From an uncultured Candidatus Saccharibacteria bacterium (lineage in GTDB: Bacteria > Patescibacteriota > Minisyncoccia > Phycocordibacterales > UBA1006), in the NCBI GenBank assembly GCA_964601935.1, contig CAZROP010000001.1, forward strand, positions 185,867 to 249,866: a DNA stretch of 64,000 bases, in the 5' to 3' direction. Position numbers and translations under genes: made by a program. The notes under the pieces are model-generated. The model did not search any database. It worked only from the letters and a program-made list of their open reading frames with translations, and was not told where the DNA came from. Position 1 is the stretch's first letter; each line of letters begins with the position of its first letter. This document shows positions 4,531 through 52,802 of the stretch, piece by piece.

Positions 4531-5136
4531 ATGGAAATAACACCCAAAACATTTACTATCCCAGCGAAACTGATCGGCAGCATAACCCCAACAACCATTG
4601 CAGAACATTTAAAGCTGTATCAAGGCTATGTTGCCAATGCAAACACTGTACTGACTAAAAAACAGGAATATATGAAGGACCCTGCAATGAATACCTACGA
4701 GATCAGCGAGCTCAATCGCCGACTATCATTCGAATATAACGGTATCACTAACCACGAACTTTATTTCGAACAAATAGAAGGCGGACCATCTGCCATTGAC
4801 ACCTCGAGTGCTCTCTATGCAAAAATAGTGGATCAATGGGGTTCATGGGACGCCTGGATCGCCGACTTTGTACAAACCGCAAAAACACGTGGTATCGGCT
4901 GGGCTATGCTGTATTATGATTCAGAGCGTGACTTCTTTATTAATTCCTGGGTAGATGAACAGCATATCGGCCATCTGGGATCATTGCACTGTATTTACGC
5001 TCTCGATATGTGGGAACACTCGTATGTATTGGATTATTTACCATCCGGCAAAGCATCCTACATACAGGACTACATGAGTAACACTAACTGGAATATACCT
5101 CAGGAACGGTATAACGCGATAACACATCAGGGTTAA
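4531..5136 (+). CDS. Fe/Mn superoxide dismutase-like protein
   Basis: 201 aa; C-terminal DMWEHSYVLDY and GWAMLYYD match the SOD Asp/His ligand region (DVWEHAYY). The N-terminal HHxKHH is reduced to a single His. Confidence 0.55.
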   Translation: MEITPKTFTIPAKLIGSITPTTIAEHLKLYQGYVANANTVLTKKQEYMKDPAMNTYEISELNRRLSFEYNGITNHELYFEQIEGGPSAIDTSSALYAKIVDQWGSWDAWIADFVQTAKTRGIGWAMLYYDSERDFFINSWVDEQHIGHLGSLHCIYALDMWEHSYVLDYLPSGKASYIQDYMSNTNWNIPQERYNAITHQG

Positions 5137-20727: not shown

Positions 20728-23700
20728 TTACGCTGCTTCTTGTAATTCTTCTCTTCCTTGCTCATTCAATGGAACAACTTTTGTACCGCTAGTTCTTTTA
20801 CGAGATAAAAAGTCTTTGAAATCTCTACCATTTTTTATTCGATCGACATGACTCTTTATCTGTTCATTAGTAGTACTCATTGATTCTACAACTTCTGGAG
20901 TAGTACTATTCTCCCGACCACGAGCTCTTCTTGCCAGCTGAGCTTGTATTTGCTCTGTAGTAGGACTTTTATTTTCTCTTGGTTTAGCATTTTCTATCCT
21001 TCTGCTCTGCCAAGAAGCTGTGGCTCTTTTTAGTGCAGGAGTAACGAATGCAGTACTTTGAAGCTGACCCTCCTCTTCTTTAGGTTTATCAAACACGCCA
21101 TCCCAGAAACTATCCCATCTATGTTCCTGTGTAAGGGTTTGAGATTCTGCGACGGGGGCTACATTTGCTTCTATTACACTTGATGTAGCAGAGGTTTGAT
21201 TGGTTTCTTCACCTGCAATAGGGGTATCAAACCCAAAGAATGAGGAATCATAACTCTGATTAGTAGTATTATTAATCGTCTGAGAGTTATTATCTTCAGC
21301 TTGCAGCCTATTACCTTGATTAGTATTATTAAGCTGTTCTCTATTATTTTCACCATCTCGAGCAAGAGAACGATCTCTCTGTAGAGTCCGCCTCTCATCA
21401 TTATCAGGCGTACGGCCTGGTTCTTGGTCTGGGTGTTTTTCCTTGTAGTCATCTGTCGGCCCCATAAATCGCTGGGCATGTATAGGTTGCACATGTATAT
21501 CAGTATCATATACATTAGGTGCTTCGTAGTCTATATCAAGGATTGGTTGATTCGAAAAGTTCTCACCCTGTATACGAGCCAACGAGCGTACATTGTACGG
21601 CATAGTATCTGAACCATCTCCCTCTAATACTTCTACTGCCAGTATCTGCCCTTTCAATTCGAATTTTCCATCTTCAGTCACATGAAGGAATTCAGAGTTA
21701 ACACCAGTATTCGGAATAAATGCCTTACCATTTTTATCAAATTCTATAAATACAGCACCTTTGTTACCGATACTATCACTTGTTACTAATTTTTCGCTTC
21801 CCTCGTAGAGCATTAACTTTATTTTTCCTTTTCCTACCATTTCTTTTATTTGATCTCCTGTCAGTTTATTACTACCAAATGTTGACTCATCGTTAAACAT
21901 GTCTGCAATCGACATTTCGTATCCCTTCACATTTCCATCAGCATCCCATATTACACCTGATCCATTTGGTCCTCCCCATTTTAGATCCAATTCATTGCGC
22001 GCAAATTCTTTGGTATCATAATCATAATAATTGTCCATTCGAACAGATTTGAATTCAGCTGGACGCTCTGCTCCATTATAAGAATCAAAATATGAACCTG
22101 GGACAGGTGTCTCTGTTATCGTGAATCCTTTCCCTGCTAATGCTTTCTGTATATCGTCCTGACCTATTACACCATCACCTGCGGCATCTGGTATAGAAAT
22201 GTTTACGCCATTCGGTCCTGTTAGTGCAACACCATTTCCCTGCTGCTCCAGACAGAACCCATCCGGTAGACGCACATCTGCAGATACCTTGCCATCTATA
22301 CCCTGGATGATAGAACTGTGAGACATGGTAGTCGTGCCTCCGCCTGTTATCAGATTTTTTAACTGCATCAGGAGTGTTGCCTTTTTCTCGGAATCTCGTT
22401 CTGTGAACCAACTTTCTACCAAACCCATCGTAGAATCATCTATCAATGCCCATATTTCAGCAGTTGCAATACCGAATGCAAATGATAGTGCAAATACGGC
22501 TGAACCTGTTATCGCTGCCTCTTTTGCGAGCATTGATTTCACCCCCCTCTTATGTTTAGAAATACTTTCTATCAACTCCTTTCTAGTTTTTGAAATCTCA
22601 GGATTTTCACGTGCATTTTGTAGAGCATTATTAAATTCATTACCAAGTTCTTTTTTTAATCCTGCACGTAGACGTGCCATTAGAACAGCAATTTCACGAT
22701 GTTGTGCTTCTACCTGACCCGGATCATACTGAATTAATTCTACCTTTTTAATATTACCTGACTTTATAAGATCTTCATAACGGATCAATAATTCCAGTTT
22801 TGATTCTAGGGGATACTCCTGACCAGCACGTAATTCGCTGATAATAGATTGTGCTGGTTGCAAATCCATGCTAAATTTTTCAAACTTTGCAGCAACTTTA
22901 TCATTACTATAGGTTTCTCCTGCAGCAGTGTTCTGGTAATACTGCTGTGCCTCGGTGGTTCTACGATTATACTGCGCTGATCCTGCGAATGCTCCACCTA
23001 TAACTGAACCTACGACTGGCACAGCTAATGTTGCTTCTGCTGCCTTTTTCGAAACTATTTTTGCGACTGATGCCGCAGCACCCGCGAGGACAGCCAGCGT
23101 TGTTCCATTAAACACTCTTGTGACTTTTATTTTTTCACACCATCTACCAAATCTACCTTTGTATTTCGATGATAACGAATGTTCTGCAATCGCTATTTTC
23201 AGAGAAATATGAAGTTCGTTTATATATCTAGCTTTCTCATCAGCGCTCAAACCCTCAAATAGAGACTTGACTTCTCTGCAGACCACAAAGAAATTATGAG
23301 CAGTTATTGTTTCCTGACCACCTCCTTGGATTCTGCGTAGTGTATCGAGCTGCTGATTTACTAACTCCTGATACGTAATTGTTTGACCTGTGGGTACTTC
23401 TGATCTGAAACTATCGATATCTTCCTGAGATTTCAGAAATTCTATCAAAAATGTTCTGAGATTTTCTGATACCTGTGCCTGTCGAGTTTCATTATTATCT
23501 ACATTATAGACCTTTTCACCTGCGCTCAAGATACTATCGTCACCACTAATCACACGATCAGCTGCTGATTCGTACAGTGCACGTGTTCTTGCCTCGCCAT
23601 CATCCTCACCCAAAAACACATTACGCTGTTCTGCTGTTTCCCGTAGTGCAGCAACACGGTGTTTTGCCTGTCGATACTCATGAACTATTGCATTTTTAGC

Positions 23701-23871
23701 TCTTGTGAACTGTCGTGCGATCCAGTTCTTTTTTTCTGCTGACTGTTCCTGAGCCCCTAATCGTTCTGCTGCCAATTTACGAGCATACTGTCGTTGAATA
23801 TCAGTCACATCAGCAATACCTACATTAACTTCTGTAGGTATTTCTTCAAAACTTGTTTCTCTGAGCAACAT
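20728..23871 (-). CDS. large surface/membrane protein: N-terminal coiled-coil domain, two TM helices, large C-terminal extracytoplasmic domain with Q/N/T-rich tail
   Basis: 1047 aa with Gly/Ala-rich TMs (LAVPVVGSVIGGAFAGSAQY; AITGSAVFALSFAFGIATAEIW); no known catalytic motifs; paralogous in architecture to 52969..55047. Confidence 0.5.
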   Translation of the reverse strand: MLLRETSFEEIPTEVNVGIADVTDIQRQYARKLAAERLGAQEQSAEKKNWIARQFTRAKNAIVHEYRQAKHRVAALRETAEQRNVFLGEDDGEARTRALYESAADRVISGDDSILSAGEKVYNVDNNETRQAQVSENLRTFLIEFLKSQEDIDSFRSEVPTGQTITYQELVNQQLDTLRRIQGGGQETITAHNFFVVCREVKSLFEGLSADEKARYINELHISLKIAIAEHSLSSKYKGRFGRWCEKIKVTRVFNGTTLAVLAGAAASVAKIVSKKAAEATLAVPVVGSVIGGAFAGSAQYNRRTTEAQQYYQNTAAGETYSNDKVAAKFEKFSMDLQPAQSIISELRAGQEYPLESKLELLIRYEDLIKSGNIKKVELIQYDPGQVEAQHREIAVLMARLRAGLKKELGNEFNNALQNARENPEISKTRKELIESISKHKRGVKSMLAKEAAITGSAVFALSFAFGIATAEIWALIDDSTMGLVESWFTERDSEKKATLLMQLKNLITGGGTTTMSHSSIIQGIDGKVSADVRLPDGFCLEQQGNGVALTGPNGVNISIPDAAGDGVIGQDDIQKALAGKGFTITETPVPGSYFDSYNGAERPAEFKSVRMDNYYDYDTKEFARNELDLKWGGPNGSGVIWDADGNVKGYEMSIADMFNDESTFGSNKLTGDQIKEMVGKGKIKLMLYEGSEKLVTSDSIGNKGAVFIEFDKNGKAFIPNTGVNSEFLHVTEDGKFELKGQILAVEVLEGDGSDTMPYNVRSLARIQGENFSNQPILDIDYEAPNVYDTDIHVQPIHAQRFMGPTDDYKEKHPDQEPGRTPDNDERRTLQRDRSLARDGENNREQLNNTNQGNRLQAEDNNSQTINNTTNQSYDSSFFGFDTPIAGEETNQTSATSSVIEANVAPVAESQTLTQEHRWDSFWDGVFDKPKEEEGQLQSTAFVTPALKRATASWQSRRIENAKPRENKSPTTEQIQAQLARRARGRENSTTPEVVESMSTTNEQIKSHVDRIKNGRDFKDFLSRKRTSGTKVVPLNEQGREELQEAA

Positions 23872-29247: not shown

Positions 29248-30354
29248 TTATCGGCCTACCGGCATTAATAATGCTCTAAAATAGATATCATCTGGCGAGG
29301 TAACCATGATAGGGCGCATTGGATCTATACAGGAAAATACCACCCTATCCACAGACAGTACGTTCATTATTTTCATAATATTATCAGCATTTACGCGTAT
29401 CATGAGGTTTTCCTCGATATCTCCGACTATCAACGCTCTAAATGATGATTTACCCCGTCCACGGTCGTTATAATCCGTTTCGCAGACACACATACTCTCG
29501 TCTGTATTGGGCTTTAGCATTATTTTAGGGAACTGAGGGTCGGCGAATGGCTGTACTGTACGTAGTGCAGTACGTACCTCGTCACGTGTGGTCTCTATGG
29601 TAATAGGAAATTCTTTGGGAATGATTTGTTCATACTGAGGATACGAACCTGTGATAGTGCGTATTATCAATGTGTAATTTCCTGACTGAAACTGACAACT
29701 GCCTTCTGTCGCCACACAATCGACCTTTCCACTATTTCCTAGGCAATGTAGCACATGAGGCGTGTATTTATTAGGTAACAACACTGTCCCCTCCTCTAGC
29801 TCACAAGGTACTCGAGTCTCAGCCAGGTAAAAACTATCTGTCGCAGCAGCTACTAAAAACCCTTGTTTTATTGACAAAAACACCGATGCAAGCTCCGGTC
29901 GTATATCAGAAACCGCACAGGCGAATGACACCCGTTTGATAACATCAGATAGTAATGTAGACGATCCTGTATACCAAGTATCTCCAACGAGTTCAGCGAA
30001 CTCCTGAACAGTTTCATGGGGATAGGTTTTAATGTCCGCCTCCGAATCCCCTGAAACGACATGTACCACACCTTCTACTATCTCCAATGTCACTTCGCCG
30101 AGGTTTTTGATAGTACTCAGAAACCCTATCAGGACATTCTGATCGATAGCGACACGTCCTGCATCATCAACAGATACAAACGGTATGATGACGCGTCCCG
30201 ATACCCCTAGACCATGCGCCAGCACCTCTACGTGATCTGTGGCAACAGTGAGACACGTGTACGCTAGGATAGGTTGCGCTGGATGGCGTGTTGGTAATTT
30301 TGATACTGATTGTAGCGCATCCAGTAGAGTTTTCCCCTGCAAGGTCAGTTTCAT
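29248..30354 (-). CDS. dnaN: DNA polymerase III beta sliding clamp
   Basis: 368 aa; N-terminus MKLTLQGKTLLDALQSVSKLPTRHPAQPILAYTCLTV matches the DnaN pattern; length and three-domain periodicity fit. Confidence 0.65.
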   Translation of the reverse strand: MKLTLQGKTLLDALQSVSKLPTRHPAQPILAYTCLTVATDHVEVLAHGLGVSGRVIIPFVSVDDAGRVAIDQNVLIGFLSTIKNLGEVTLEIVEGVVHVVSGDSEADIKTYPHETVQEFAELVGDTWYTGSSTLLSDVIKRVSFACAVSDIRPELASVFLSIKQGFLVAAATDSFYLAETRVPCELEEGTVLLPNKYTPHVLHCLGNSGKVDCVATEGSCQFQSGNYTLIIRTITGSYPQYEQIIPKEFPITIETTRDEVRTALRTVQPFADPQFPKIMLKPNTDESMCVCETDYNDRGRGKSSFRALIVGDIEENLMIRVNADNIMKIMNVLSVDRVVFSCIDPMRPIMVTSPDDIYFRALLMPVGR

Positions 30355-30590: not shown

Positions 30591-33305
30591 CTAGGGTGCG
30601 CACAGGGTGTTCGCTCTATCACGAGTTAGGCTATCCCAAATACCAGGAGGCTCCTCTAGTCCGCGCGGCTGCATAATAGTGGTGTAGTTCTGTAGTTGGA
30701 AATCTTTTACTGCTTCTTCGGTTTTGGATTCAAAAGTGCCGGTGACTTCTATACTATAGCCTTGTTGTACTAGAAAGAGTTGTACTCGCTGGATCTCTGA
30801 AGTGTCAGTGCTATCACGGGTGAGTTCAGTGATAAATGGTGCCGAGCATGCCGATACGGACTGTTCGCCCAGGGCGACCTGTTCTATTGTCGATACGCGG
30901 GGTTCTGTATCGGGGATATCCAATTCCTGTAGCCCGGTACGCACTCGTACATCATTGAGGACTTTATTTGCTTTACCTCGACTGAATTTGAAGAAGTTGC
31001 CAGTAGCGTGACCTACTCCAGCCTGGATCAGAATATCGCTGTCGTTGTTCTGATAGGTGTTCACGGCCTGGGTAGTTTCAGGTCCGAAGTATCCATTCAC
31101 CTCGAGATCAGTGCCAAGATAGTAGTTGAGGAATTCTTGAATACGTTTTACTTCTTCAGGATAAGTTGGTCCGAGGTTCTGGTTCATGTCTTTGAGAAAT
31201 AGATACTCTTCCAGAGATTGTGGTAGCGGTTTGTTTGTGTTGAATGGGGATGTCTCTATCGTTTCTTTTGTTATAGAAGGCTGATTTTTTGATACCTCTT
31301 TGATACTTTCTTTTGTAGTTGTCGTTTTTATCGTGGTGTTCGTAGTCAGAGAAGGTACAGTAGTTGGTGTTTTTTCTGCTGTTGAACTTACCGCGGTGGT
31401 ACTTGATTTTGAAAGAGGATTGTAAGTATCTACGGAAGTAGCCAAAGCCAATCGAATCGAACCTCTGTCGAGAGCGGTACCTTGTGATAATGAATCGGAC
31501 AGAGTTCTGCTGTCTGTTATGAGTACACCGTCCATTGATCCGAGGATTGGTAGATTAAATGCATCAGAACTTTCCGGTATAAATCCTGTACTACCTGATG
31601 CTAATAATAGTAGGAGTGTAGCAATAGTCGCCTTTTTGACATGTTTTTTTGCTACCTGATGACGTACTTTTTTGTGAATCTGTTTATGTACCGGTATCGA
31701 TTTGTTTTCTGGTTTGCTACTGCTGAATAGTGCTTGTATGAGAGCTATTACAATAGTACTACCTAGTACTATTGCTCCTATGGATGCAAGGAGGAAGAGT
31801 AATTGGTTGATAGAGATATCAGTATACATATAGTAGGTCACTATTCGTGTATACATAACGTATCCACCGAGTGCGATACACCCTATCAGACCTATAAATA
31901 TAGTGAATAATAGGAAATTACTTGTAGGTTTTGTAGTATGTACCGATGTTGTGATTCGTTTCATACGCATAACGGTTGGTGTCCGCGTATCTTTGTGCTT
32001 CATAGATGCATACTGCCCCCATAATGTGCCCAGCATATAGAATAACCCTCCTATCATCAATGTGAATCCTATATCAGATAAAATATCTCCTGTTAGTGAC
32101 CAGGTATAGGGCAGCTTTTCGATTACATGTGCAGAAGAAGCACTGTACGCCTGAACATTTTGTACAAAGGGTACCACTAATGCTACAACAAATAAAACAT
32201 AGTTTGCGATATGGAGAGCCGCTGTTTCAGGGGATCGTGTGCTTCCTTTGTGTGCTTTATGATGGAGTAGTGTAGCAATACAGAGCACTGCCAAGAATCC
32301 TAGTGTTATAGGTAATAACTCATAAGTTTCTATAAATGTTCGTAGAGAGGTTTTCCAGTCTACGTTTTGCAGCGAACGTGTTTGTATAGCGTTTTCTTCT
32401 TCTGGTGTTGTTATGACTTTGGTGCCGAGTGCCAGACGTAATGGCTCTGTACTCTGTGTGTAATAATGATCGCCTGCTGGTGTGATAATAGTGGTAATGG
32501 ATGTTTCAGTATTAGGTAATAGAGATGCTAATACATCAGGAGTCAGTGATGCCATACGAAGCCTGTGCCCAGATAGGTTACTCGATTCAGAAATATATTG
32601 AACGGTTTCTCTATTTGCAGTAAAAGGAGTAATTTCTGATAGTGAAGGTAGCTCACCATTCTGTAGTGCATACGCGGAAGCAGGTATAAATACTAATGTA
32701 CATACTGCAACAGCAACTAATTTATACCAAGAGTTGGATAACTGCATTAATACTTGTGCAGTATTTTTGAATAGAGAGAAATCTTGTGAATACTTTAGGG
32801 GTCTACGTCTGTCAGGTTCTCCATCATCAAGACACAAGCCATCCTGTGGGCTCGATGAGCTGGAAACACATACTGCACGCTCTCCTGAATAGGAAGATGG
32901 TGTTGCAGATGTATTTCCGGTAGAAGCTATAAGGTATGGAGACTGGATATATGTTGATGTAGATACTGTGCGACCACTGCGTGTTGCAGTTTTTGGTGCT
33001 GTTGCATAAACATGACTGCGTTCCTGTCGGATACGACTAGAAAGAGTACGTGGAGATTTCGATGTGATAGTTGTACGAGAATCCATCAGAGAACTTTGTG
33101 TTTGCGCACGCTGCGATACTGCGCGCTTGAACTCACCAGAAATATCTTTCTTTTGTGCAGTAACCGTTGTGGCGCGATTCCATACCTGTACAATCGGTGA
33201 CGGAGTTGCAGCGTGTGTGAACTTCTGTGTCTTTGATCGTGCACGAGAAGTACGTACGGACGACTGGGTGTTCATATGAACATGAGAGAGAGTTGATGTG
33301 CTCAT
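30591..33305 (-). CDS. large polytopic membrane protein with two C-terminal peptidoglycan-binding (PG_binding_1-like) domains and S/T-rich N-terminus
   Basis: 904 aa; at least 8 TM helices in the middle; two C-terminal repeats (EFLNYYLGTDLEVNGYFGPETTQAVNTYQ and LFLVQQGYSIEVTGTFESKTEEAVKDFQ) fit the PG-binding motif. Confidence 0.5.
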   Translation of the reverse strand: MSTSTLSHVHMNTQSSVRTSRARSKTQKFTHAATPSPIVQVWNRATTVTAQKKDISGEFKRAVSQRAQTQSSLMDSRTTITSKSPRTLSSRIRQERSHVYATAPKTATRSGRTVSTSTYIQSPYLIASTGNTSATPSSYSGERAVCVSSSSSPQDGLCLDDGEPDRRRPLKYSQDFSLFKNTAQVLMQLSNSWYKLVAVAVCTLVFIPASAYALQNGELPSLSEITPFTANRETVQYISESSNLSGHRLRMASLTPDVLASLLPNTETSITTIITPAGDHYYTQSTEPLRLALGTKVITTPEEENAIQTRSLQNVDWKTSLRTFIETYELLPITLGFLAVLCIATLLHHKAHKGSTRSPETAALHIANYVLFVVALVVPFVQNVQAYSASSAHVIEKLPYTWSLTGDILSDIGFTLMIGGLFYMLGTLWGQYASMKHKDTRTPTVMRMKRITTSVHTTKPTSNFLLFTIFIGLIGCIALGGYVMYTRIVTYYMYTDISINQLLFLLASIGAIVLGSTIVIALIQALFSSSKPENKSIPVHKQIHKKVRHQVAKKHVKKATIATLLLLLASGSTGFIPESSDAFNLPILGSMDGVLITDSRTLSDSLSQGTALDRGSIRLALATSVDTYNPLSKSSTTAVSSTAEKTPTTVPSLTTNTTIKTTTTKESIKEVSKNQPSITKETIETSPFNTNKPLPQSLEEYLFLKDMNQNLGPTYPEEVKRIQEFLNYYLGTDLEVNGYFGPETTQAVNTYQNNDSDILIQAGVGHATGNFFKFSRGKANKVLNDVRVRTGLQELDIPDTEPRVSTIEQVALGEQSVSACSAPFITELTRDSTDTSEIQRVQLFLVQQGYSIEVTGTFESKTEEAVKDFQLQNYTTIMQPRGLEEPPGIWDSLTRDRANTLCAP

Positions 33306-33887: not shown

Positions 33888-36137
33888 TTAAGCTGTACCA
33901 GACAATCTCTTCATAGAAAGACCGATACGATCTCGTTCTTTGTCTACAGAAACAATGATTGCTTCTACGGATTGTCCTTGCGATAGCTTATCGCTTACAC
34001 GTGAAACGCGATCTTTGGATATTTCAGAGATATGAATCATACCTGAAGTATTCCCCCACTCTACAATGGCGCCTGTTTCGTCAATAATTTTAACTACCAC
34101 TGCTGTTACACGCTCACCTACAACCCATTCATGAGTCATGTCCTCTATAATTTTGCGTGCCGCAGAAGGTCCTGAAAAAGATTGGCTTGTTTCAGCTAGT
34201 CCTTTTTCTGGGTGACCAGTAATAAATATTCTTCCGTCGTCCTCAATGCTGATAGTGGTTTTTGTGTCCTTTTGAATCTTTTGGATAGTCTTACCTCCGC
34301 CACCTATAACCAAACCTATCTTTTCTGGATCAATTTGTAGTATTTCAATACGCGGTGCGTATGGTGATAATATAGGTCGAGGTACAGAAATAGCATCAGT
34401 AATCGTCTTTAAAAGCGTTTCATGTGCAACACGGGCCGCTCGAACTGCCTCGCGACACACAGAAACAGGGATACTCGCTAATTTTATATCCATCTGGATG
34501 GCAGTGATACCTGCACTTGTTCCTGCAACTTTGAAATCCATATCTCCATGATGATCCTCGGGGCCCTGAATATCGGTCAATAAAGCATATTTGCTAGTAA
34601 CTGCATCCATCATGAGTCCTATAGAAATTCCAACTACCGGTCGGGTAATAGGTACTCCAGCATCCATTAGAGCCAGAGTTGCAGCACAAACACTGGCCTG
34701 ACTGGTTGATCCGTTAGATGAAAGACATTCTGATACTACACGGATAGTATAGGGAAATAGGTCTACATTAGGGATAACTGGCTCGAGAGCCTTCTGAGCC
34801 AGAGCTCCATGGCCCAATTCGCGTCTGCCAGTTGATCCTATACGACCAGTTTCTCCTGTGCTGTAGGGAGGAAAGTTGTAGTGATGCCAAAATCGCTCCT
34901 CTCCGGCACTATCCATAGATTCATGCATCAAATTACTATCGGGTCCAGCCAGTGTTGCAACTGACAGTACATGTGTTTCACCGCGGTAGAATATGCCACT
35001 ACCATGTAATCTGTCGGATATACCTCCTGCCTGGGCATATAATGGACGTACTTCATCCATTTTTCGACCATCAGCACGTTTTTTGTCTTGTAGTGCTGCA
35101 GTGTGGAGGACTTCATCAATCTTGTGATCCAAAAAGTCACTAGAATTGTGAAAGGGATCAGATTCTTTTTCTATTTGTGGGTTTTCTTCAGTAACTTTTT
35201 TATATTCTTTTCGTTCTTCCTCGATTATCTCCTTCCAGGTAGTGAATATCTGTCCTATACGAGATTTACTGTCAGTACCAAACAGATCGCGTTCTATAAT
35301 CAGTCGCATACGTGTCTCGTATATGTCTGATAATTTTTGAGAAAATACCGGGAATTCGATTACTTTTTTTGTTTTTCCTACTGTAGTACGTAATTCAGTT
35401 ATCCAGGATGTCCATTGTGCTGTAATAGACACAGTCGTGTCTAATAATTGATCAAATAGCTCAGGAGATACCTCAGCAGAGCCCATTTCTATCATGTTTA
35501 CTGCTGTACCATTGCCACATACCAGTAGATCTGCAGATAGAAAAGGCGTAATCGACATATTAGGTTGATAGGGGTTAATAGATATTTCTTGAGAATTTGA
35601 ATTCAATAATACACCACTACGAGCACAGCCAATAGGTCCATTCCACGGAATGTCTGATATGTGTAACGCCATAGATGCTGCGTTTGTAGCCAAGACAACA
35701 GGATCGTAATCTCCAACAGAAAGTACGGTTACGATGATTTGTACGGAGTTTTTGATACGGCTATCGAATAAAGGACGTAATGTTCTGTCTATAATACGTG
35801 ATGCTAACGTTGCATTCAGGCTGGGACGTCCCTCGCGACGCTGGTAAGGACCGCCAGCTATTTTGCCAGATGCATAGAATCGCTCGGTATATTCGACAGT
35901 CAAATTGAAATATCCAGGATTCTTGTGTGTATCATCACCCATAGTGATCGCAGCCAGCACTACTGTTCCGTTTGCTGATAGCATTATTGACCCGTTTGCC
36001 TGTCCTGCTAAATCGGTGAGGTGCGCCGTAACTGTGGTTCCTGATATGTCCTTTATATAGGTTGTGTGTTTCATAGATGGTTCTGTTATGTCGAGTAATA
36101 AAGTATTGATTAGATTAATCAATAGATCTGTAACCAA
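33888..36137 (-). CDS. pnp: polyribonucleotide nucleotidyltransferase (PNPase)
   Basis: 749 aa; two RNase PH domains (RREGRPS...RPLF), a KH domain (KIGLVIGGGGKTIQKI), and a C-terminal S1 domain. Confidence 0.88.
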   Translation of the reverse strand: MVTDLLINLINTLLLDITEPSMKHTTYIKDISGTTVTAHLTDLAGQANGSIMLSANGTVVLAAITMGDDTHKNPGYFNLTVEYTERFYASGKIAGGPYQRREGRPSLNATLASRIIDRTLRPLFDSRIKNSVQIIVTVLSVGDYDPVVLATNAASMALHISDIPWNGPIGCARSGVLLNSNSQEISINPYQPNMSITPFLSADLLVCGNGTAVNMIEMGSAEVSPELFDQLLDTTVSITAQWTSWITELRTTVGKTKKVIEFPVFSQKLSDIYETRMRLIIERDLFGTDSKSRIGQIFTTWKEIIEEERKEYKKVTEENPQIEKESDPFHNSSDFLDHKIDEVLHTAALQDKKRADGRKMDEVRPLYAQAGGISDRLHGSGIFYRGETHVLSVATLAGPDSNLMHESMDSAGEERFWHHYNFPPYSTGETGRIGSTGRRELGHGALAQKALEPVIPNVDLFPYTIRVVSECLSSNGSTSQASVCAATLALMDAGVPITRPVVGISIGLMMDAVTSKYALLTDIQGPEDHHGDMDFKVAGTSAGITAIQMDIKLASIPVSVCREAVRAARVAHETLLKTITDAISVPRPILSPYAPRIEILQIDPEKIGLVIGGGGKTIQKIQKDTKTTISIEDDGRIFITGHPEKGLAETSQSFSGPSAARKIIEDMTHEWVVGERVTAVVVKIIDETGAIVEWGNTSGMIHISEISKDRVSRVSDKLSQGQSVEAIIVSVDKERDRIGLSMKRLSGTA

Positions 36138-36359
36138 TCGCCAGTATTCATAAGGGTATTCATACTAATAGCATAACCAGAATGCCAGAGTAGTGTATTT
36201 CACGACTCTGATAGTGATTATGTGAATTAATATTCAGAGTATGAAGAGCCTGAGAATACGAGCAGGTTGGTGGATCAAGTACGAGTATAGCATATAGACG
36301 AGTGACTACCTAATCAGTGGATACAGAGAGGTTTTTCGGGTAATCGGCTGTTGAATAAA

Positions 36360-36403
36360 CAAAAACATCTCGTTTCCATAATGGAAACGAGATGTTTTTG
36401 TTA
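36360..36403 (-). terminator. intrinsic terminator (15-bp perfect stem) between pilin array and pnp
   Basis: aaacatctcgtttcc-ataat-ggaaacgagatgttt followed by a T-run on the minus strand. Confidence 0.65.
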
Positions 36404-36454: not shown

Positions 36455-36490
36455 ACAAAAAACCACTGTCATGACGCAGTGGTTTTTGTA
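36455..36490 (-). terminator. intrinsic terminator immediately after pilin gene 1
   Basis: aaccactg-tcatgacg-cagtggtt followed by a T-run. Confidence 0.6.
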
Positions 36491-36511: not shown

Positions 36512-37012
36512 TTATGGACATTTCACAGTCGCAGGTGTTCCAGCAGCAGCAGCAATAGTTACTACACTGGATGAAGCAGCAATCTGTTTGTTGGATCCTG
36601 CTGAGTCAGCACACCATGCAGTACTACCTGCACCACTCTTCAATAATGTGACCGCAGCCCAAGAAACTGAGTTACTAGAACATGCAGTTGCCACTGTTGT
36701 TGATGTTGAAACGGCAGCACCTGCTGTACTTGCAGCTACTGTTGTCGCAGGTAAGTAGGCCTGTCCTGCTGCCAACACTCCATCATATGTCTTACTTGTA
36801 GTAGCACATACAGTTTGATAACCTGTTGTTGTTTCATCGTAAATAACTTCTGCCGAAGCTCTCACATTAGATATATTACCCTTGATCGCAGCATCAGCAC
36901 CTTTCACACGCGCACTGTTTACTGAACCAATCACTACTGTTGCAAGAACACCAATGATGGCAATAACCACGAGAAGCTCTATCAGAGTAAAACCTCGTAA
37001 TTTTATACTCAT
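36512..37012 (-). CDS. type IV pilin / pseudopilin (class III signal peptide), copy 1
   Basis: 166 aa starting MSIKLRG|FTLIELLVVIAIIG (prepilin peptidase site); conserved C-terminus IAAAAGTPATVKCP. Confidence 0.85.
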   Translation of the reverse strand: MSIKLRGFTLIELLVVIAIIGVLATVVIGSVNSARVKGADAAIKGNISNVRASAEVIYDETTTGYQTVCATTSKTYDGVLAAGQAYLPATTVAASTAGAAVSTSTTVATACSSNSVSWAAVTLLKSGAGSTAWCADSAGSNKQIAASSSVVTIAAAAGTPATVKCP

Positions 37013-37069
37013 AGTATATTAAATTGTTAAGTTGATAATATGATAGAGAATTTACGTATTATTCTCTAT
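36783..37069. repeat. 287-bp block (pilin 5' coding region plus leader plus operator) 100% identical to 37531..37817
   Basis: direct base-by-base comparison of the two segments. Confidence 0.85.
37043..37069. promoter_or_regulatory. 9-bp perfect inverted repeat ATAGAGAAT-N9-ATTCTCTAT about 31 nt upstream of pilin copy 1 start (candidate operator)
   Basis: identical element upstream of all three pilin genes. Confidence 0.5.
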
Positions 37070-37183
37070 CATGTAACAATCATATCAGTCATTACTAAGT
37101 TTTCATTATGAATAATTGGGTAAACTGTGGAGATCTAGTATGGGTATACGCACCAATTTAGTATGTGTGACATAGTGAGTACA

Positions 37184-37218
37184 CTAGCTCTGGAAAATAC
37201 AAAGACCACTGTCGATTG
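37184..37218 (-). terminator. intrinsic terminator after pilin gene 2
   Basis: gaccactgtc-gatt-gacagtggtc with a T-run on the minus strand. Confidence 0.6.
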
Positions 37219-37253
37219 ACAGTGGTCTCGGTAAATACTAGTTATGTAACACA

Positions 37254-37760
37254 CTATGGACATTTCACAGTAGCTGGCGTCCCAGCTGCCGCGGCAATAG
37301 ATACTGTATAAGCTGTGGTCAGTGTAATCTGCTCATTAGACCCCGATGAATCAGCGCACCATGCTGTTAACCCTGCTGTTCCTCGTAGTGGTACCGCTGC
37401 AACCCAAGAAATCCCATTACTAACACATACACCCAGTGTTGTTGGTGCGCCAGTATTAGTTGCAGTACCGCTTGTATTGGCGGTTACTGTCGCGTCAGAT
37501 CTGTGTACCTTTGCTGCCGCTAATACCCCTTCATATGTCTTACTTGTAGTAGCACATACAGTTTGATAACCTGTTGTTGTTTCATCGTAAATAACTTCTG
37601 CCGAAGCTCTCACATTAGATATATTACCCTTGATCGCAGCATCAGCACCTTTCACACGCGCACTGTTTACTGAACCAATCACTACTGTTGCAAGAACACC
37701 AATGATGGCAATAACCACGAGAAGCTCTATCAGAGTAAAACCTCGTAATTTTATACTCAT
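37254..37760 (-). CDS. type IV pilin / pseudopilin, copy 2
   Basis: 168 aa; first 75 residues identical to copy 1, divergent middle, shared C-terminus ...GTPATVKCP. Confidence 0.85.
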   Translation of the reverse strand: MSIKLRGFTLIELLVVIAIIGVLATVVIGSVNSARVKGADAAIKGNISNVRASAEVIYDETTTGYQTVCATTSKTYEGVLAAAKVHRSDATVTANTSGTATNTGAPTTLGVCVSNGISWVAAVPLRGTAGLTAWCADSSGSNEQITLTTAYTVSIAAAAGTPATVKCP

Positions 37761-37790
37761 AGTATATTAAATTGTTAAGTTGATAATATG

Positions 37791-37817
37791 ATAGAGAATT
37801 TACGTATTATTCTCTAT
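37791..37817. promoter_or_regulatory. inverted repeat ATAGAGAAT-N9-ATTCTCTAT upstream of pilin copy 2
   Basis: exact copy of the element at 37043. Confidence 0.5.
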
Positions 37818-37893
37818 ATAGCTGTATAATAACAGACTTAATAACTGTTTATATTTAATTTTCTCGAACCCTGTGGAGATCTAGAACAATATA

Positions 37894-37923
37894 AAAACTA
37901 CTATCTGTCGATAGTAGTTTTTA
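37894..37923 (-). terminator. intrinsic terminator after pilin gene 3
   Basis: aaaaactactatc-tgtc-gatagtagttttt. Confidence 0.55.
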
Positions 37924-37933
37924 TTATTCATAC

Positions 37934-38431
37934 TTATGGACATTTCACGGTAGGAGGCGTCCCAGCTGCGGCGGCGATGGTTACACTACCAACAACGGCA
38001 GGTACTGATTTGTTAGACCCCGATGAATCAGCGCACCATGCAGTCGAATAGTTTGCTCCTTTGAGAGGAGAAACAGCAGCCCATGATACTCCATTACTAA
38101 CGCAAACAGCTAATATCCCTGATGCCGTATTTGCTGCTGCACCAGTTGTGTTGGATGCTACGGTTATAGTAGATCCGTGTACTTTCGCTGCGGCGAGAAC
38201 ACCTTCGTATCCTTTGCTGGTAGTAGCACATACACTCGTGTAATTACCTGTTTCATCATAAATAGTTTCTGCTGTAGTGCGTACATTCGATATATTCCCC
38301 TTGATAGCTGCGTCTGCTGCTTTTACTCTTGCACTGTTTACTGAACCAATCACTACTGTTGCAAGAACACCAATGATGGCAATAACCACGAGAAGCTCTA
38401 TCAGAGTAAAACCTCGTAATTTTATAATCAT
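37934..38431 (-). CDS. type IV pilin / pseudopilin, copy 3
   Basis: 165 aa starting MIIKLRGFTLIELLVVIAIIG; about 80% identical N-terminus, variable middle, C-terminus ...GTPPTVKCP. Confidence 0.85.
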   Translation of the reverse strand: MIIKLRGFTLIELLVVIAIIGVLATVVIGSVNSARVKAADAAIKGNISNVRTTAETIYDETGNYTSVCATTSKGYEGVLAAAKVHGSTITVASNTTGAAANTASGILAVCVSNGVSWAAVSPLKGANYSTAWCADSSGSNKSVPAVVGSVTIAAAAGTPPTVKCP

Positions 38432-38470
38432 ACGTTTCTAATATTACCATTGTTAAGTTTATAAAATCTG

Positions 38471-38497
38471 ATAGAGAATTTACGTATTATTCTCTAT
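38471..38497. promoter_or_regulatory. inverted repeat ATAGAGAAT-N9-ATTCTCTAT upstream of pilin copy 3
   Basis: third exact copy of the palindrome. Confidence 0.5.
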
Positions 38498-38639
38498 ATA
38501 TCTATGGTATCAGAATAATTCTGTGAAAGGCTGGATAGTATCTGTTAATTGTGGAGAATGTGAAATCTAGTTGTGAGTAGATTTATTGATACCTTACAAG
38601 AATTAATCTATTTTAGATTCTTGATTTGCTGATTAACTA

Positions 38640-38676
38640 TAACAAACCCCTGAACAGTTGTTCAGGGGTTTGTTTG
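38640..38676 (-). terminator. intrinsic terminator after rpsO
   Basis: aaacccctgaac-agtt-gttcaggggttt. Confidence 0.6.
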
Positions 38677-38688
38677 GAAGAGGTAGTA

Positions 38689-38973
38689 CTATTTTCGCAG
38701 TTCCAGTTTTTCGATCAGAGCAGTGTAGGCTGCGACATCATGCTTTTTTATGTAGTTTAGCATACGGCGGCGAGTTGAAACGAGTTTCACTAATCCCATT
38801 CTACTCGACAGATCTTTCTTGTGGATCTTGAGGTGCTCGGTGAGCTCCTTTATGCGAGCAGTCAGGAGAGCAACCTGTACGGGAGCAGATCCTGTATCGT
38901 TCGTCGATTTCTGATGAGGCTTGATAATTCTGGTTTTTGTTTTTGAAGTCATCATAGATGGTTCGCGAGACAA
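38689..38973 (-). CDS. rpsO: 30S ribosomal protein S15
   Basis: 94 aa with S15 signatures [27 protein letters not shown] and TRRRMLNYI. Confidence 0.85.
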
Positions 38974-39011: not shown

Positions 39012-39992
39012 ATGCTATACTATAGCCATATTATAGTTATGTCAAGTCATGCTGCTTTGCGCCAATTCTTGGAACATTTAGAAATCGAACGTGGTCGATC
39101 CTCGCTCACTCTGCGTAACTATGAACATTATTTGACCACACTGTTCAATGTGATGAAGATCGAGTCTGTGGCTCAGATCGATGCAGATGTTATTCGCGAG
39201 TTTCGGTTGTGGTTGAATCGTCAGCCAGGCGCACGAGCACGAGGTCAGACAGATTCTCTGATGAAACGACGCACTCAAAATTACTACCTCATCGCTCTGC
39301 GATCATTCCTACGGTATGCGATGAAACGGGGTTGGACGCAGTTTGCTCCTGACAATATCGAACTCGCCCGTGTCGGTGATCGTCACATTGATATGATATC
39401 TGCTGATGAGCTTTCCAGAATAATGTCATCATTTGATACGACTACTCGTTCAGGTGTTCGGGACCGAGCTATACTCGAACTCCTCTACTCGACCGGATTG
39501 CGTGTATCAGAATTGGTGTCACTAAACTGTGACCTGGATCTATCCCGCGATGAACTGTCGATTCGCGGTAAGGGTGACAAGGTGCGACTCGTATTCGTTT
39601 CACCAGATGCTCGCATATGGTTGAAAAAATACCTCGGACTTCGTGCCGATGCACAGGATGCTCTGTTCGTCGATGAGCGTGCCAGCGCCGCAGAGTCATC
39701 GGATCGCGAGGCACGCCTAACGCCTCGATCTGTGGAACGTATTGTCGCCGCCGCCGCGGTACGTGCTGGTATCGGAAAGAAGGTGACCCCACATATCATT
39801 CGTCATTCGTTCGCGACAGGTCTATTGGAAAATGGCGCGGACATTCGTTCGGTGCAGACACTGCTCGGTCATGCGCATATCGGGACAACGCAGATCTACA
39901 CGCATGTCACTGACAAACATCTAAAAGATGTATTCAAAAAATTTCACAAACCGACAGATACCTCGGTTACAGAAAAAACCTCTGACACGTAG
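39012..39992 (+). CDS. xerC: tyrosine site-specific recombinase (XerC/XerD family)
   Basis: 326 aa; C-terminal catalytic box HIIRHSFATGLLENGADIRSVQTLLGHAHIGTTQIYTHV (R..H..Y). Confidence 0.75.
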   Translation: MLYYSHIIVMSSHAALRQFLEHLEIERGRSSLTLRNYEHYLTTLFNVMKIESVAQIDADVIREFRLWLNRQPGARARGQTDSLMKRRTQNYYLIALRSFLRYAMKRGWTQFAPDNIELARVGDRHIDMISADELSRIMSSFDTTTRSGVRDRAILELLYSTGLRVSELVSLNCDLDLSRDELSIRGKGDKVRLVFVSPDARIWLKKYLGLRADAQDALFVDERASAAESSDREARLTPRSVERIVAAAAVRAGIGKKVTPHIIRHSFATGLLENGADIRSVQTLLGHAHIGTTQIYTHVTDKHLKDVFKKFHKPTDTSVTEKTSDT

Positions 39993-50732: not shown

Positions 50733-52802
50733 ATGAGTGAACGCACGCCCGGAGAAGAAATCCTAGAAAACGCCGAGAATACTCCAGAAAGATTAATAAA
50801 TGCTCATATATTGAACGATATAGAGTTACAGTATGCATTACAGTTATTCCCTGTAGAAACTCTAGAATCTGTGCAAGAGAAAAGTCACGAAAAGATAGTA
50901 GATGAGCGAGTAACAATGCTGAACCGTTCGTGCATGTATGACGAGGTCAAGCCAGGAGAGGAGGGTATGCATCGACCAGAGCGTGCATATACTCCATTTT
51001 CGAAACTACGGTTCATAGCACCTCCTACTGAAGAGGTTGCAAATGAACTGCGATCACTGGGGGTGGTTCATGTGAAACAGTCTCTCGAGGCAACGAGACA
51101 GGCCCAAGATCTAGCACAATTTACCGAAATGGTCGAATGGTACGAAACACAAGAGCAGGCAAAACAGGAATGTTTAGAAGTTCTTCGTTCTTTACAAGAG
51201 AGCGCACAAGATGATTTACATGAGCTGGCTTTGCTCTTTCAGAAGATAGAGACTTCTTCTTCGGAGGCTGGTCACATGAATTACGAGCACGCGCAGAAAT
51301 GGGCGTACCAACTACTGATGGGAGGGCCTCTCACGAACAGTGTACAGTCGAGCGGAGGAGGACTGCGCGATACCTTCGAGGCATACATTTCTAATGTAGA
51401 GAACCTAAGGCAGCCGGCATACTACACCGATTTGTTGGTTGAAATACAAAATCACCAACGTGCTATAGAAATACTGAAGAGTTTGCCAGCGGCTACAGAC
51501 CCAGGATTGCAGGAGAAGTATAGAATCTGGCGGCAGATGAATACTCTTTTCAGAGGAGATGTAGAGGATAAGGTCTATACGTTCATGACCGAACAGGTAG
51601 GATATAATCAGACAAAACAGGGTATCCACATCCACAATCGTGTACCCAAAAGCTATCAACCTACACGTGGTCAGTATTCTCCTAAATACGGGTACAATGA
51701 TGCAAAGAATAAGCAACAAGAACTAATGCCTCGGGTGGAGCTTGCTCTGGAGAGCGCAACTCGATTCGTCGATACGACAGTCGCTCGTGCGCAGATGGAG
51801 TACGAAGTACTGCATCTGCCCGCGACAGAAACAAAATACGTTTCACCTGATGACGCGGCGAAGTATCTGAAACACGAGAAAGACAAGCGAGTAATAGAAG
51901 CACGAAAAGCAGCTGAGTTATTAGGTCGTAGACCAGAGACGTTTGCGCGGACTGTGGTTGATGCGGGGAACTTTACAGGAGAAGTCAGCTTTACTCTGAG
52001 GCCAAGAGATATGTTACCTGATATACATGCTGAGATACAAGAGCTAGAGAGACAAATCGTGGATTTGGGGATCGAGATAGGTAAATTGACGAAATCGGCT
52101 GATTCCATGAAAGATTCATTGGAAAAGGGTAGGGCGTATGATAGTTCGTCTAAACTTTATAAATTGGTTGTGTCACCTCCTATTGTTAACACAACCTGGA
52201 CTGAGCATGGCAACAAGCTTGATGATATAAAAAACTTAACATCAAAAAAGACAGACATAGAGCAAAATCTCGAGGTATTGCAAGCAGAATTAGAAACACA
52301 ATCACGACACCAATCTAATATATCGTTTGACTGGGAAAATGAGTGTATAAATATGATTACTAGAGGTGAATACCTGGGTTATGATATGAAACAGGGCGAA
52401 GTATCGGATATAGGGGCAGATTTTGATGTGGTGGCGTTCAAAAGATCACTATATAATCGTCTGTCTGGTGGTAGTAAGTCTATTTCAGAATTAGAACTGC
52501 GTAATTTGCAGAATGATATTGTTACATTCCTAGGCTTGGTATCCCGATGGGGGTTGTCGCCTGCAGAACAAACAGCATTAGACCATTATGATTCTGTGTT
52601 GCAGCGAGTCAGTAAAGGCGAATCGCGTACTCCAGAATGGTTACAGGGCGTGCCATTTGATGCGAAACAGGTGTACGAACATGCACTCGATGTTGTAATG
52701 CCTGCACAGGAAGCAGCTTTGGGTGTTGTAGATGGAAATGTATCTGTTGAAGTAGTGGCTGACGCGTATATGCGGTTGTACGGCGATAATAATGAAAAGT
52801 AA
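50733..52802 (+). CDS. large soluble coiled-coil hypothetical protein (first gene of + strand module)
   Basis: 689 aa, acidic and helical, no TM. Confidence 0.45.
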   Translation: MSERTPGEEILENAENTPERLINAHILNDIELQYALQLFPVETLESVQEKSHEKIVDERVTMLNRSCMYDEVKPGEEGMHRPERAYTPFSKLRFIAPPTEEVANELRSLGVVHVKQSLEATRQAQDLAQFTEMVEWYETQEQAKQECLEVLRSLQESAQDDLHELALLFQKIETSSSEAGHMNYEHAQKWAYQLLMGGPLTNSVQSSGGGLRDTFEAYISNVENLRQPAYYTDLLVEIQNHQRAIEILKSLPAATDPGLQEKYRIWRQMNTLFRGDVEDKVYTFMTEQVGYNQTKQGIHIHNRVPKSYQPTRGQYSPKYGYNDAKNKQQELMPRVELALESATRFVDTTVARAQMEYEVLHLPATETKYVSPDDAAKYLKHEKDKRVIEARKAAELLGRRPETFARTVVDAGNFTGEVSFTLRPRDMLPDIHAEIQELERQIVDLGIEIGKLTKSADSMKDSLEKGRAYDSSSKLYKLVVSPPIVNTTWTEHGNKLDDIKNLTSKKTDIEQNLEVLQAELETQSRHQSNISFDWENECINMITRGEYLGYDMKQGEVSDIGADFDVVAFKRSLYNRLSGGSKSISELELRNLQNDIVTFLGLVSRWGLSPAEQTALDHYDSVLQRVSKGESRTPEWLQGVPFDAKQVYEHALDVVMPAQEAALGVVDGNVSVEVVADAYMRLYGDNNEK

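Follow-up and report, generated by a model that had tools for sequence, protein, structure and literature searches.

Type IV pili are the best-supported host-contact organelle of the Candidate Phyla Radiation (CPR), and their regulation is almost unstudied. Hairpins at the 5' end protect mRNAs from 5'-end-dependent decay, and 5'-terminal stem-loops stabilise bacterial mRNAs in the leaders of Escherichia coli ompA and of Bacillus subtilis aprE and ermC. For pilin mRNAs, control of pilA translation through the 5' untranslated region (UTR) is described for the small RNA Arp of Acinetobacter baumannii (PMC12338739). The major pilins of Nanosynbacter lyticus TM7x are small, highly expressed proteins with a lollipop fold that are rich in Gly, Ala, Ser and Thr (GAST), and this richness serves as a flag for major pilins in that Saccharibacteria study (PMC11623550). 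The locus analysed here is an array of three tandem pilin genes, each preceded by the same 27-nt palindrome, which lies between rpsO and pnp in a 64-kb stretch of DNA from an uncultured, ultra-small CPR bacterium (hereafter the window).

With a probability of roughly 0.55, the array is a lineage-specific tandem set of three complete, separately transcribed paralogs of a PilA-like type IVa pilin, in which the 5' parts have been homogenised and the palindrome acts as a 5' stem-loop of the mRNA. The three minus-strand open reading frames (ORFs) between rpsO and pnp (Table 1) all match PF07963 (N_methyl; 31-33 bits against a cut-off of 21.2) and TIGR02532 (32.5 bits against a cut-off of 16.3), in agreement with the original prediction, an earlier annotation of this DNA, which had placed three tandem pilin genes here. 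All three products carry the class III prepilin leader MSIKLRG/FTLIE, with G-1, F+1 and E+5, match solved PilA sequences, and conform to the lollipop fold, in which an N-terminal helix of ~50 residues packs on an antiparallel beta-sheet. Four Cys residues are conserved in each; Cys134 and the penultimate Cys are invariant among 25 homologs, and the proteins have a C-terminal D-region bounded by a predicted disulfide bond. The residues that vary between the copies (~77-131 and 142-152) fall in the helix and strands past the N-terminal helix and inside the loop from Cys134 to the C-terminal Cys, and on the precedent of type IVa pilins we take them to be the surface-exposed parts.

The mature pilins contain 49-53% GAST, compared with 27-32% in the cytoplasmic proteins of the window. 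Their closest homologs come from five other CPR genomes, where each directly follows pilC as the leading pilin of a canonical cluster; this cluster has the order pilB, response regulator, pilT, pilC, a tandem set of two or three pilins, pilD and minor pilins. The nearest non-self pilin is 52% identical. Judged from their sequences, the three genes are PilA-like type IV pilins, and such tandem sets are usual in the lineage. The GAST content and the first-pilin position of the homologs fit a major-subunit role.

The history of the copies was examined by sliding identity and by the Nei-Gojobori method applied segment by segment, which gives the proportions of nonsynonymous (pN) and synonymous (pS) differences. 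Copies 1 and 2 share an exact 287-bp block, whose upstream end is the distal edge of the palindrome, and a 96-bp block covering the N-terminal helix is identical in all three (Table 1). The 100% identity of the longer block had been recognised in the original prediction, which let it end slightly too early, after the first 75 codons. Between copies 1 and 2, the synonymous divergence dS is 0 over codons 1-75, and between copy 3 and the others it is 0 over codons 1-33. Outside the identical blocks, pS rises to 0.5-0.8 and is saturated (~0.68 for pilin 3 against copies 1 and 2 past codon 33), which bears out the predicted divergence of the central region. Because synonymous sites are saturated there, the paralogs must be old, and the identity of their 5' parts is therefore secondary and points to gene conversion rather than recent duplication; of the two processes proposed originally, conversion is retained and recent duplication is not. 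The C-terminal 16 codons behave differently, with a pN of 0.03 and a pS of 0.35-0.63. Since pN is low at such a pS, the C-terminus IAAAAGTP(A/P)TVKCP that all three pilins have in common reflects constraint on the protein and not conversion, so that the predicted motif is correct and its "re-convergence" is not. Tandem pilins of two other CPR loci, L190 and L191, likewise contain exact 5' blocks of 41-84 nt. Positive selection was considered for the variable region, where dN/dS is below 1 and dS is saturated, and no such claim is made.

From the upstream box to the terminator, the cassette unit measures 681-683 nt in all three copies. The predicted strong hairpin terminators are present behind each pilin, run into U-tracts and fold at -14 to -23 kcal/mol, with z between -3 and -8; they are homologous to one another, with changes on both sides of the stem. 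Homologous terminators and units of this size indicate that whole cassettes were duplicated, and because terminators close rpsO and every pilin, the pilins are probably independent transcription units.

The inverted repeat ATAGAGAAT-N9-ATTCTCTAT occurs exactly three times in the window with an identical 9-nt spacer, and the full 27-mer ATAGAGAATTTACGTATTATTCTCTAT is present in one copy upstream of each pilin ORF, as had been predicted. The distance to the ATG is 30, 30 and 39 nt in cassettes 1, 2 and 3, so that the predicted spacing of about 31 nt holds for the first two cassettes and fails for the third. A further match is not found at up to 3 mismatches in the 64 kb (0.09 expected by chance); the exact half-site is absent from the rest of the window, and no half-site with up to 1 mismatch lies at any other gene. 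Around the cassette 3 copy, the flanks are only 57-90% identical per 30-nt alignment window, with a 9-nt indel between palindrome and ATG; sliding identity is 57% in the 30-nt leader window downstream and 47-57% just upstream of the palindrome. The palindrome of cassette 3 is thus an island of identity in diverged flanks, which indicates that the element is constrained in its own right.

Searches beyond the window returned little. A metagenome-wide scan for the arms gave 105 exact matches; their spacers all differ from that of the window, some of them fall inside coding sequence, and not one precedes a pilin gene. Viral contigs contain no match to the pattern conserved between the window and its homolog at locus L195, and Rfam at gathering thresholds reports tRNAs only in the window and no family for the element. 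The wider regulon suggested in the original prediction is therefore not supported, as there is no other copy or near-copy in the 17% of the contig visible to the palindrome search and no pilin-linked match among the 105. The same 9-nt arms with the spacer ACAAACTGT or ACAGTTTGT form a longer palindrome, ATAGAGAATACA-AAC-TGTATTCTCTAT, at L081, L083, L091, L109, L119, L121, L127 and ~30 more metagenome loci, which are mostly marine and of low GC content (0.29-0.36); this is an unrelated conserved element. Inverted repeats downstream of the -10 box are also seen in other CPR pilA leaders, at L193 (4925-4951), L197 (~2944-2971) and L190 (~4962-4984). The L193 repeat, ATTCAGATA-N9-TATCTGAAT, again has the 9-N9-9 layout, and that of L197 is 8-N12-8. 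CPR major-pilin genes may in general have structured 5' leaders.

In all three cassettes, an extended -10 box ends a few nucleotides upstream of the palindrome (Table 1). The pattern TGNTANNNT (TGnTAnnnT) matches once per cassette in the 80 nt upstream, despite diverged spacers, and the chance of all three matches is ~3e-7 in a post hoc estimate. For each of the four predicted leaders, the minimum-free-energy fold has this hairpin at the 5' end; in cassette 1, the core folds with -7 kcal/mol (z -4.1) and the predicted UTR with -15.7 kcal/mol. The only other instance of the element in 2.26 Mb of compared DNA is GTAGAGGAG-AATACGTAA-CTCCTGTAT at L195, the closest relative seen (S15 76% and Xer 64% identical). 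It lies ~158 nt from the ATG and 9 nt downstream of a consensus TATAAT, which indicates that the conserved linkage is to the -10 box and not to the start codon. In a comparison with the window copies, the centre is identical at 9/9 positions, and the arms differ by two compensatory pairs (A-U to G-C and U-A to G-C), one G-U pair and one broken pair. Linkage to the -10 box, an invariant centre and co-variation of the arms fit a transcribed 5' stem-loop better than an operator. Additionally, the inner TACGTA palindrome, as read from the sequence, is offset by half a base from the register of the outer arms, which argues against a single two-fold protein-DNA complex using both.

The leader box AACTTAACA, which stands between hairpin and ATG, recurs in the leaders of the L195 and L198 pilins. 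It is confirmed in the nearest pilin homolog, P0004, whose 571-bp contig ends before the hairpin position. The upstream box occurs at no other gene in the window. Related T(C/T)CACA(G) boxes are found upstream of first or major pilins of distant CPR at L190 (~4854), L191 (~4897), L193 (~4845), L195 (~2770), L197 (~2896) and L196 (~3495); they are present in 3/3 canonical clusters, compared with 19 of 1154 background upstream regions, and usually lie 28-32 nt before the -10 box (39-43 nt in the window and L191). In CPR pilA genes, this box may bind an activator or belong to the promoter.

The cassette order would accordingly read T(C/T)CACA box, extended -10 box, palindrome starting at ~+1 to +3 of the transcript, AACUUAACA box, ORF and terminator, with the AACUUAACA box in an A/U-rich leader that has no Shine-Dalgarno sequence. 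Through conversion, the copies would have their expression signals and the filament-core helix in common and would differ in the globular exposed parts. The palindrome would form a 5'-terminal stem-loop with the invariant 9-nt loop AAUACGUAA, which may set mRNA stability and/or translation alike for the three pilins, and the products would be alternative or mixed subunits of a CPR type IV pilus for host attachment, motility or DNA uptake. The array would fill the rpsO-pnp slot in a small CPR clade, most relatives having an NYN-like gene there.

Leaders of this kind would be unusual in this genome. A Shine-Dalgarno motif (GGAG, GAGG or AGGA) is found within 25 nt upstream of 4 of 46 window ORFs, and 11 of 43 genes have a strong -10-like box whose end is 4-13 nt ahead of the start codon, compared with 3.9% at random positions. 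This suggests that leaderless or very short-leader mRNAs are widespread in the genome, to which pilin leaders of ~60-70 nt would be exceptions.

Several points weigh against this account of the locus. Gene conversion is read from the identity pattern of the copies, and the position of the palindrome inside the transcript depends on a 5' end placed by the -10 boxes. The three copies in the window are not independent, so that L195 is the sole independent lineage; one of its nine pairs is broken, and 35 of 500 shuffles match the observed co-variation. Symmetric changes in the arms would also be expected if a dimeric DNA-binding protein had shifted its specificity. A proximal promoter is conceivable as well: cassette 3 has TGGTAATAT at 38441-38449, and cassettes 1 and 2 have TTTAAT. 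Such a promoter would put the palindrome at -31 to -57, the position of an operator or activator site, and the many leaderless-looking genes make its existence plausible. Finally, no pilus assembly or machinery genes are found within the window, and the tie of the three pilins to a pilus machinery is therefore drawn from their homologs.

The first rival is a DNA operator, on which a dimeric regulator would bind the 9-N9-9 repeat and repress or activate the three pilins together, either at +1 to +27 of the upstream promoter, which is classical for a repressor site, or at -31 to -57 of a proximal promoter of the leaderless type. The perfect inverted repeat, found in the 64 kb only at the three pilin genes, and the identity island of cassette 3 are as expected of such a site, as are the symmetric arm changes of L195 if they record co-evolution with a dimeric protein, and the largely leaderless genome makes the proximal promoter plausible. 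The palindrome also overlaps a weak promoter-like match, TAGAGA-17-TATCAT; its -10 hexamer is not conserved (TATCAG in cassette 3, TATCCA in L195), and it was rejected as the main promoter. However, the centre is fully conserved while the arms drift, and a spaced-dimer operator usually shows the opposite; the half-sites are 18 bp apart from centre to centre, with TACGTA out of their register; the distance to the ATG varies by 9 nt between cassettes, and at L195 the element keeps its place near TATAAT far from the ATG; and no candidate regulator has been identified. The operator named in the original prediction is thus unproven, and with a -10 linkage of 6-9 nt, the invariant centre and the arm co-variation of L195 pointing to a 5' stem-loop, we regard it as a serious but less likely rival. 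A bolder version of the stem-loop, which we hold still less probable, is that the element is an undescribed cis-regulatory RNA of CPR pilin mRNAs whose loop AAUACGUAA is specifically recognised. The loop consists of two purines, a self-complementary UACGUA core and one purine, and it could be bound by a dedicated RNA-binding factor or let the three pilin mRNAs pair with one another by kissing. The element and the AACUUAACA box would jointly set the stability and translation of alternative pilins, and conversion would keep the control module identical.

The remaining explanations have little probability. The palindromes could be core sites at which the adjacent Xer-like enzyme excises, reinserts or shuffles cassettes in the manner of an integron or shufflon. 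In favour are a 287-bp block whose end coincides exactly with the distal palindrome edge, a spacer common to the three sites (a requirement for recombining partners), cassette units of almost the same length (681-683 nt) and a recombinase gene 500 bp away. The enzyme is XerC/D-like, however, and occupies the same rpsO-side place in 58/80 relatives with a pilin-free interval and in L195; the L195 element precedes a single pilin and has no partner site; and the identity runs for 260 bp on one side only, which fits homologous conversion. As read from the sequence, the palindrome also departs from the 11-6-11 layout of dif-type sites; a dif-like reading was rejected on this arm and spacer geometry and on an Xer synteny that is independent of the pilins. 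Recombination at the palindromes is accordingly very improbable. Antigenic variation of the Neisseria type, with one expressed pilin and silent donor cassettes, would explain the mosaic of conserved 5' and 3' ends, variable centre and conversion tracts. It fails because every copy is complete (start codon, leader, N-terminal helix, promoter-like box, 5' element and terminator in 3/3); in addition, conversion homogenises the conserved part and not the variable part, and two independent assemblies agree on the variable region of pilin 1, so that we give this reading hardly any credence. These assemblies are two short-read Logan contigs with 100% identity to the window, both of which stop at 36812, 30 nt inside the 287-bp repeat, as a real repeat breaks short-k assembly; identical to the window and ending there, they show no variant junctions and are uninformative on cassette variation. 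A search of other samples for cassette variants found no exact product of the pilin genes or of the Xer protein on record. An assembly artefact, in which strain alleles of one pilin were strung across repeats, is equally hard to credit. The contig is metagenome-assembled, short-read assemblies break at the repeat, and the three pilin proteins are recorded from a single source only. Against this, each inter-cassette spacer is unique, has diverged from the others and links one particular terminator to one particular promoter; dS between the copies is saturated, far above strain-level variation; and relatives normally have two or three pilins in tandem, with at least 2 pilins at this site in L001.

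The setting of the array was compared in 80 loci fetched via polynucleotide phosphorylase (PNPase), to which all counts of relatives refer. Where both genes are on the contig, rpsO lies upstream of pnp on the same strand and is never adjacent to it; the gap is 550 to >1000 bp and is filled by an NYN-like gene of ~169 aa in 70/80 relatives, for which Pfam assigns the NYN domain PF01936 in L195. This gene lies at 9297-9842 in L005, 9298-9807 in L009, 9350-9859 in L016, 1696-2478 in L195 and in ~66 other loci, and the block Xer, rpsO, NYN, pnp looks like a lineage-wide unit linked to RNA metabolism. No NYN gene or remnant is detected by tblastn in the whole window. The order in L195 is Xer, rpsO, NYN and one homologous pilin, and that in L001, which has the closest PNPase (58%), is pilin, toxin-antitoxin pair, pilin and pnp. 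With pilins at this place in L195 and L001 and the NYN-like gene in most relatives, the slot is variable in the clade, and the array is no fresh insertion into a tight operon. The claimed insertion into a conserved rpsO-pnp operon is thus not supported, and rpsO of the window is closed by a hairpin of its own (-25 kcal/mol). The toxin-antitoxin-like ORFs of L001 (708-935 and 940-1206) are bracketed by near-identical hairpin repeats at 603-635 and 1231-1268 (GGGTCAAAAGC..GCTTTTGACCC), as if a small mobile module had been put into the pilin array.

An Xer homolog of 50-60% identity is divergent to rpsO in 58/80 relatives, all of them free of pilins in the rpsO-pnp interval, and the recombinase of the window scores 120 bits on an integron-integrase model with a cut-off of 265. 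By this synteny, the recombinase is a housekeeping neighbour of rpsO outside the pilin system and not the player that the original prediction had hinted at, although the positions given there for this gene and for rpsO are right. The pnp gene had also been found, with a start at 36137; the ATG at 36074 is the more probable start because the 728-aa product is on record. Between the terminator of pilin 1 and pnp, a perfect 22-bp hairpin (36358-36402; -29 kcal/mol, z -11.5) has an A-run on one side and a T-run on the other; it may serve as an additional terminator acting in both directions or as a structure at the head of the ~280-nt pnp leader.

Table 1. Features of the pilin array and its flanks, in window coordinates
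Feature	Position	Strand	Remarks
Pilin 1, PilA-like type IVa prepilin	36512..37012	-	166 aa; PF07963, TIGR02532; four Cys; mature GAST 53.5%
Pilin 2	37254..37760	-	168 aa
Pilin 3, most diverged copy	37934..38431	-	165 aa; protein identity to pilins 1 and 2 71-75%
Palindrome 1, ATAGAGAAT-AATACGTAA-ATTCTCTAT on coding strand	37043..37069	-	stem reaches 12 bp
Palindrome 2	37791..37817	-	27-nt exact copy
Palindrome 3	38471..38497	-	27/27 identity inside diverged flanks
Exact 287-bp block, copies 1 and 2	36783..37069 = 37531-37817		palindrome, leader and 76 codons plus 2 nt
Exact 96-bp block, all three copies	38331..38426; 36912-37007; 37660-37755		N-terminal helix codons
Extended -10 box TGATATGAT	37079..37087	-	ends 9 nt upstream of palindrome 1
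Extended -10 box TGTTATTAT	37826..37834	-	ends 8 nt upstream of palindrome 2
Extended -10 box TGATACCAT	38504..38512	-	ends 6 nt upstream of palindrome 3
Leader box AACTTAACA, between hairpin and ATG	37025..37033; 37773-37781; 38451-38459	-	four exact copies in 64 kb, three here
Upstream box CTAGATCTCCACAG	37125..37138; 37871-37884	-	degenerate form ACTAGATTTCACATTCTCCACA at 38550-38571
Terminator of pilin 1	36458..36487	-	hairpin, -13.9 kcal/mol, then U-tract
Terminator of pilin 2	37202..37229	-	hairpin and U-tract, -22.9 kcal/mol, z -8.3
Terminator of pilin 3	37891..37924	-	hairpin and U-tract, -17.9 kcal/mol, z -6.9; stem homologous to other two
rpsO (ribosomal protein S15)	38689..38973	-	PF00312, E 6e-32
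rpsO terminator hairpin	38641-38674	-	-25.2 kcal/mol
pnp (polynucleotide phosphorylase)	33888..36074	-	RNase_PH, KH and S1 domains
XerC/D-like tyrosine recombinase	39012..39992	+	NCBIfam profile; ~500 bp from array

Some further features of the window were recorded. The dnaN gene (29248-30354) lies at the minimum of the cumulative GC skew, at ~30 kb, which places the replication origin probably within a few kb of the pilin array. The dnaA gene is not adjacent to dnaN, the next gene (30591-33305) encoding a 904-aa protein with peptidoglycan-binding domains. Pfam gave no match at E <= 0.001 for four large ORFs of 689-1047 aa (20728-23871, 50733-52802, 52969-55047 and 61210-63438), which are typical CPR dark matter; the last of them recurs identically in two other sequencing runs.

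Taken as a whole, the locus is a real but essentially ordinary multi-copy CPR pilin family, and under the ordinary reading alone it would be one more such family of limited general interest. The location between rpsO and pnp and the nearby recombinase reflect the synteny of the lineage and are not signs of mobile or recombinase-driven cassettes. The modestly novel part, possibly new, is the leader module of -10 box, hairpin and AACUUAACA box that is kept identical through conversion. The array offers a candidate mechanism by which an uncultured lineage could control pilin choice, either post-transcriptionally or through an operator.

The closest comparison is with the canonical CPR pilus clusters, which contain the closest homologs (44-50% identity). 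Their pilins too come in tandem sets of two or three, with exact blocks of 41-84 nt common to the 5' ends of the paralogs; a strong terminator closes the first pilin, a T(C/T)CACA(G) box stands upstream, and a hairpin follows shortly after the -10 box. The window trio differs from these clusters in its place between rpsO and pnp, away from the machinery genes, in the greater similarity of its copies (71-75% at the protein level), in longer identical tracts (96 and 287 bp) and in one 27-nt element common to all copies. In Nanosynbacter lyticus TM7x, the pilins, among them pilA1 and pilA2, are likewise found at several loci, some away from the machinery (PMC11623550). However, TM7x belongs to Saccharimonadia, and the organism here is a Patescibacteria (CPR) bacterium of the Nomurabacteria/Paceibacteria type; the two major pilins of TM7x serve two different machineries and do not form near-identical tandem paralogs, and a common 5' element is not described for them (PMC11623550).

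The pilE/pilS system of Neisseria resembles the array in conversion among pilin copies with conserved ends and a variable centre, whereas its pilS copies are promoterless, have no 5' coding part and transfer variable segments; the window copies are complete, and it is their conserved 5' part that is homogenised. In the rpsO-pnp operon of E. coli, rpsO also lies upstream of pnp on the same strand with hairpins in the interval, but in this lineage the two genes are non-adjacent, with an NYN-like gene or three pilins between them, and rpsO and each pilin have their own terminator. As for the stabilising 5' stem-loops, the likeness lies in a hairpin within a few nucleotides of the predicted 5' end and in an abundant mRNA for a structural protein. 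The loop in the window is invariant and has a UACGUA core, which suggests specific recognition, whereas simple protective hairpins need none.

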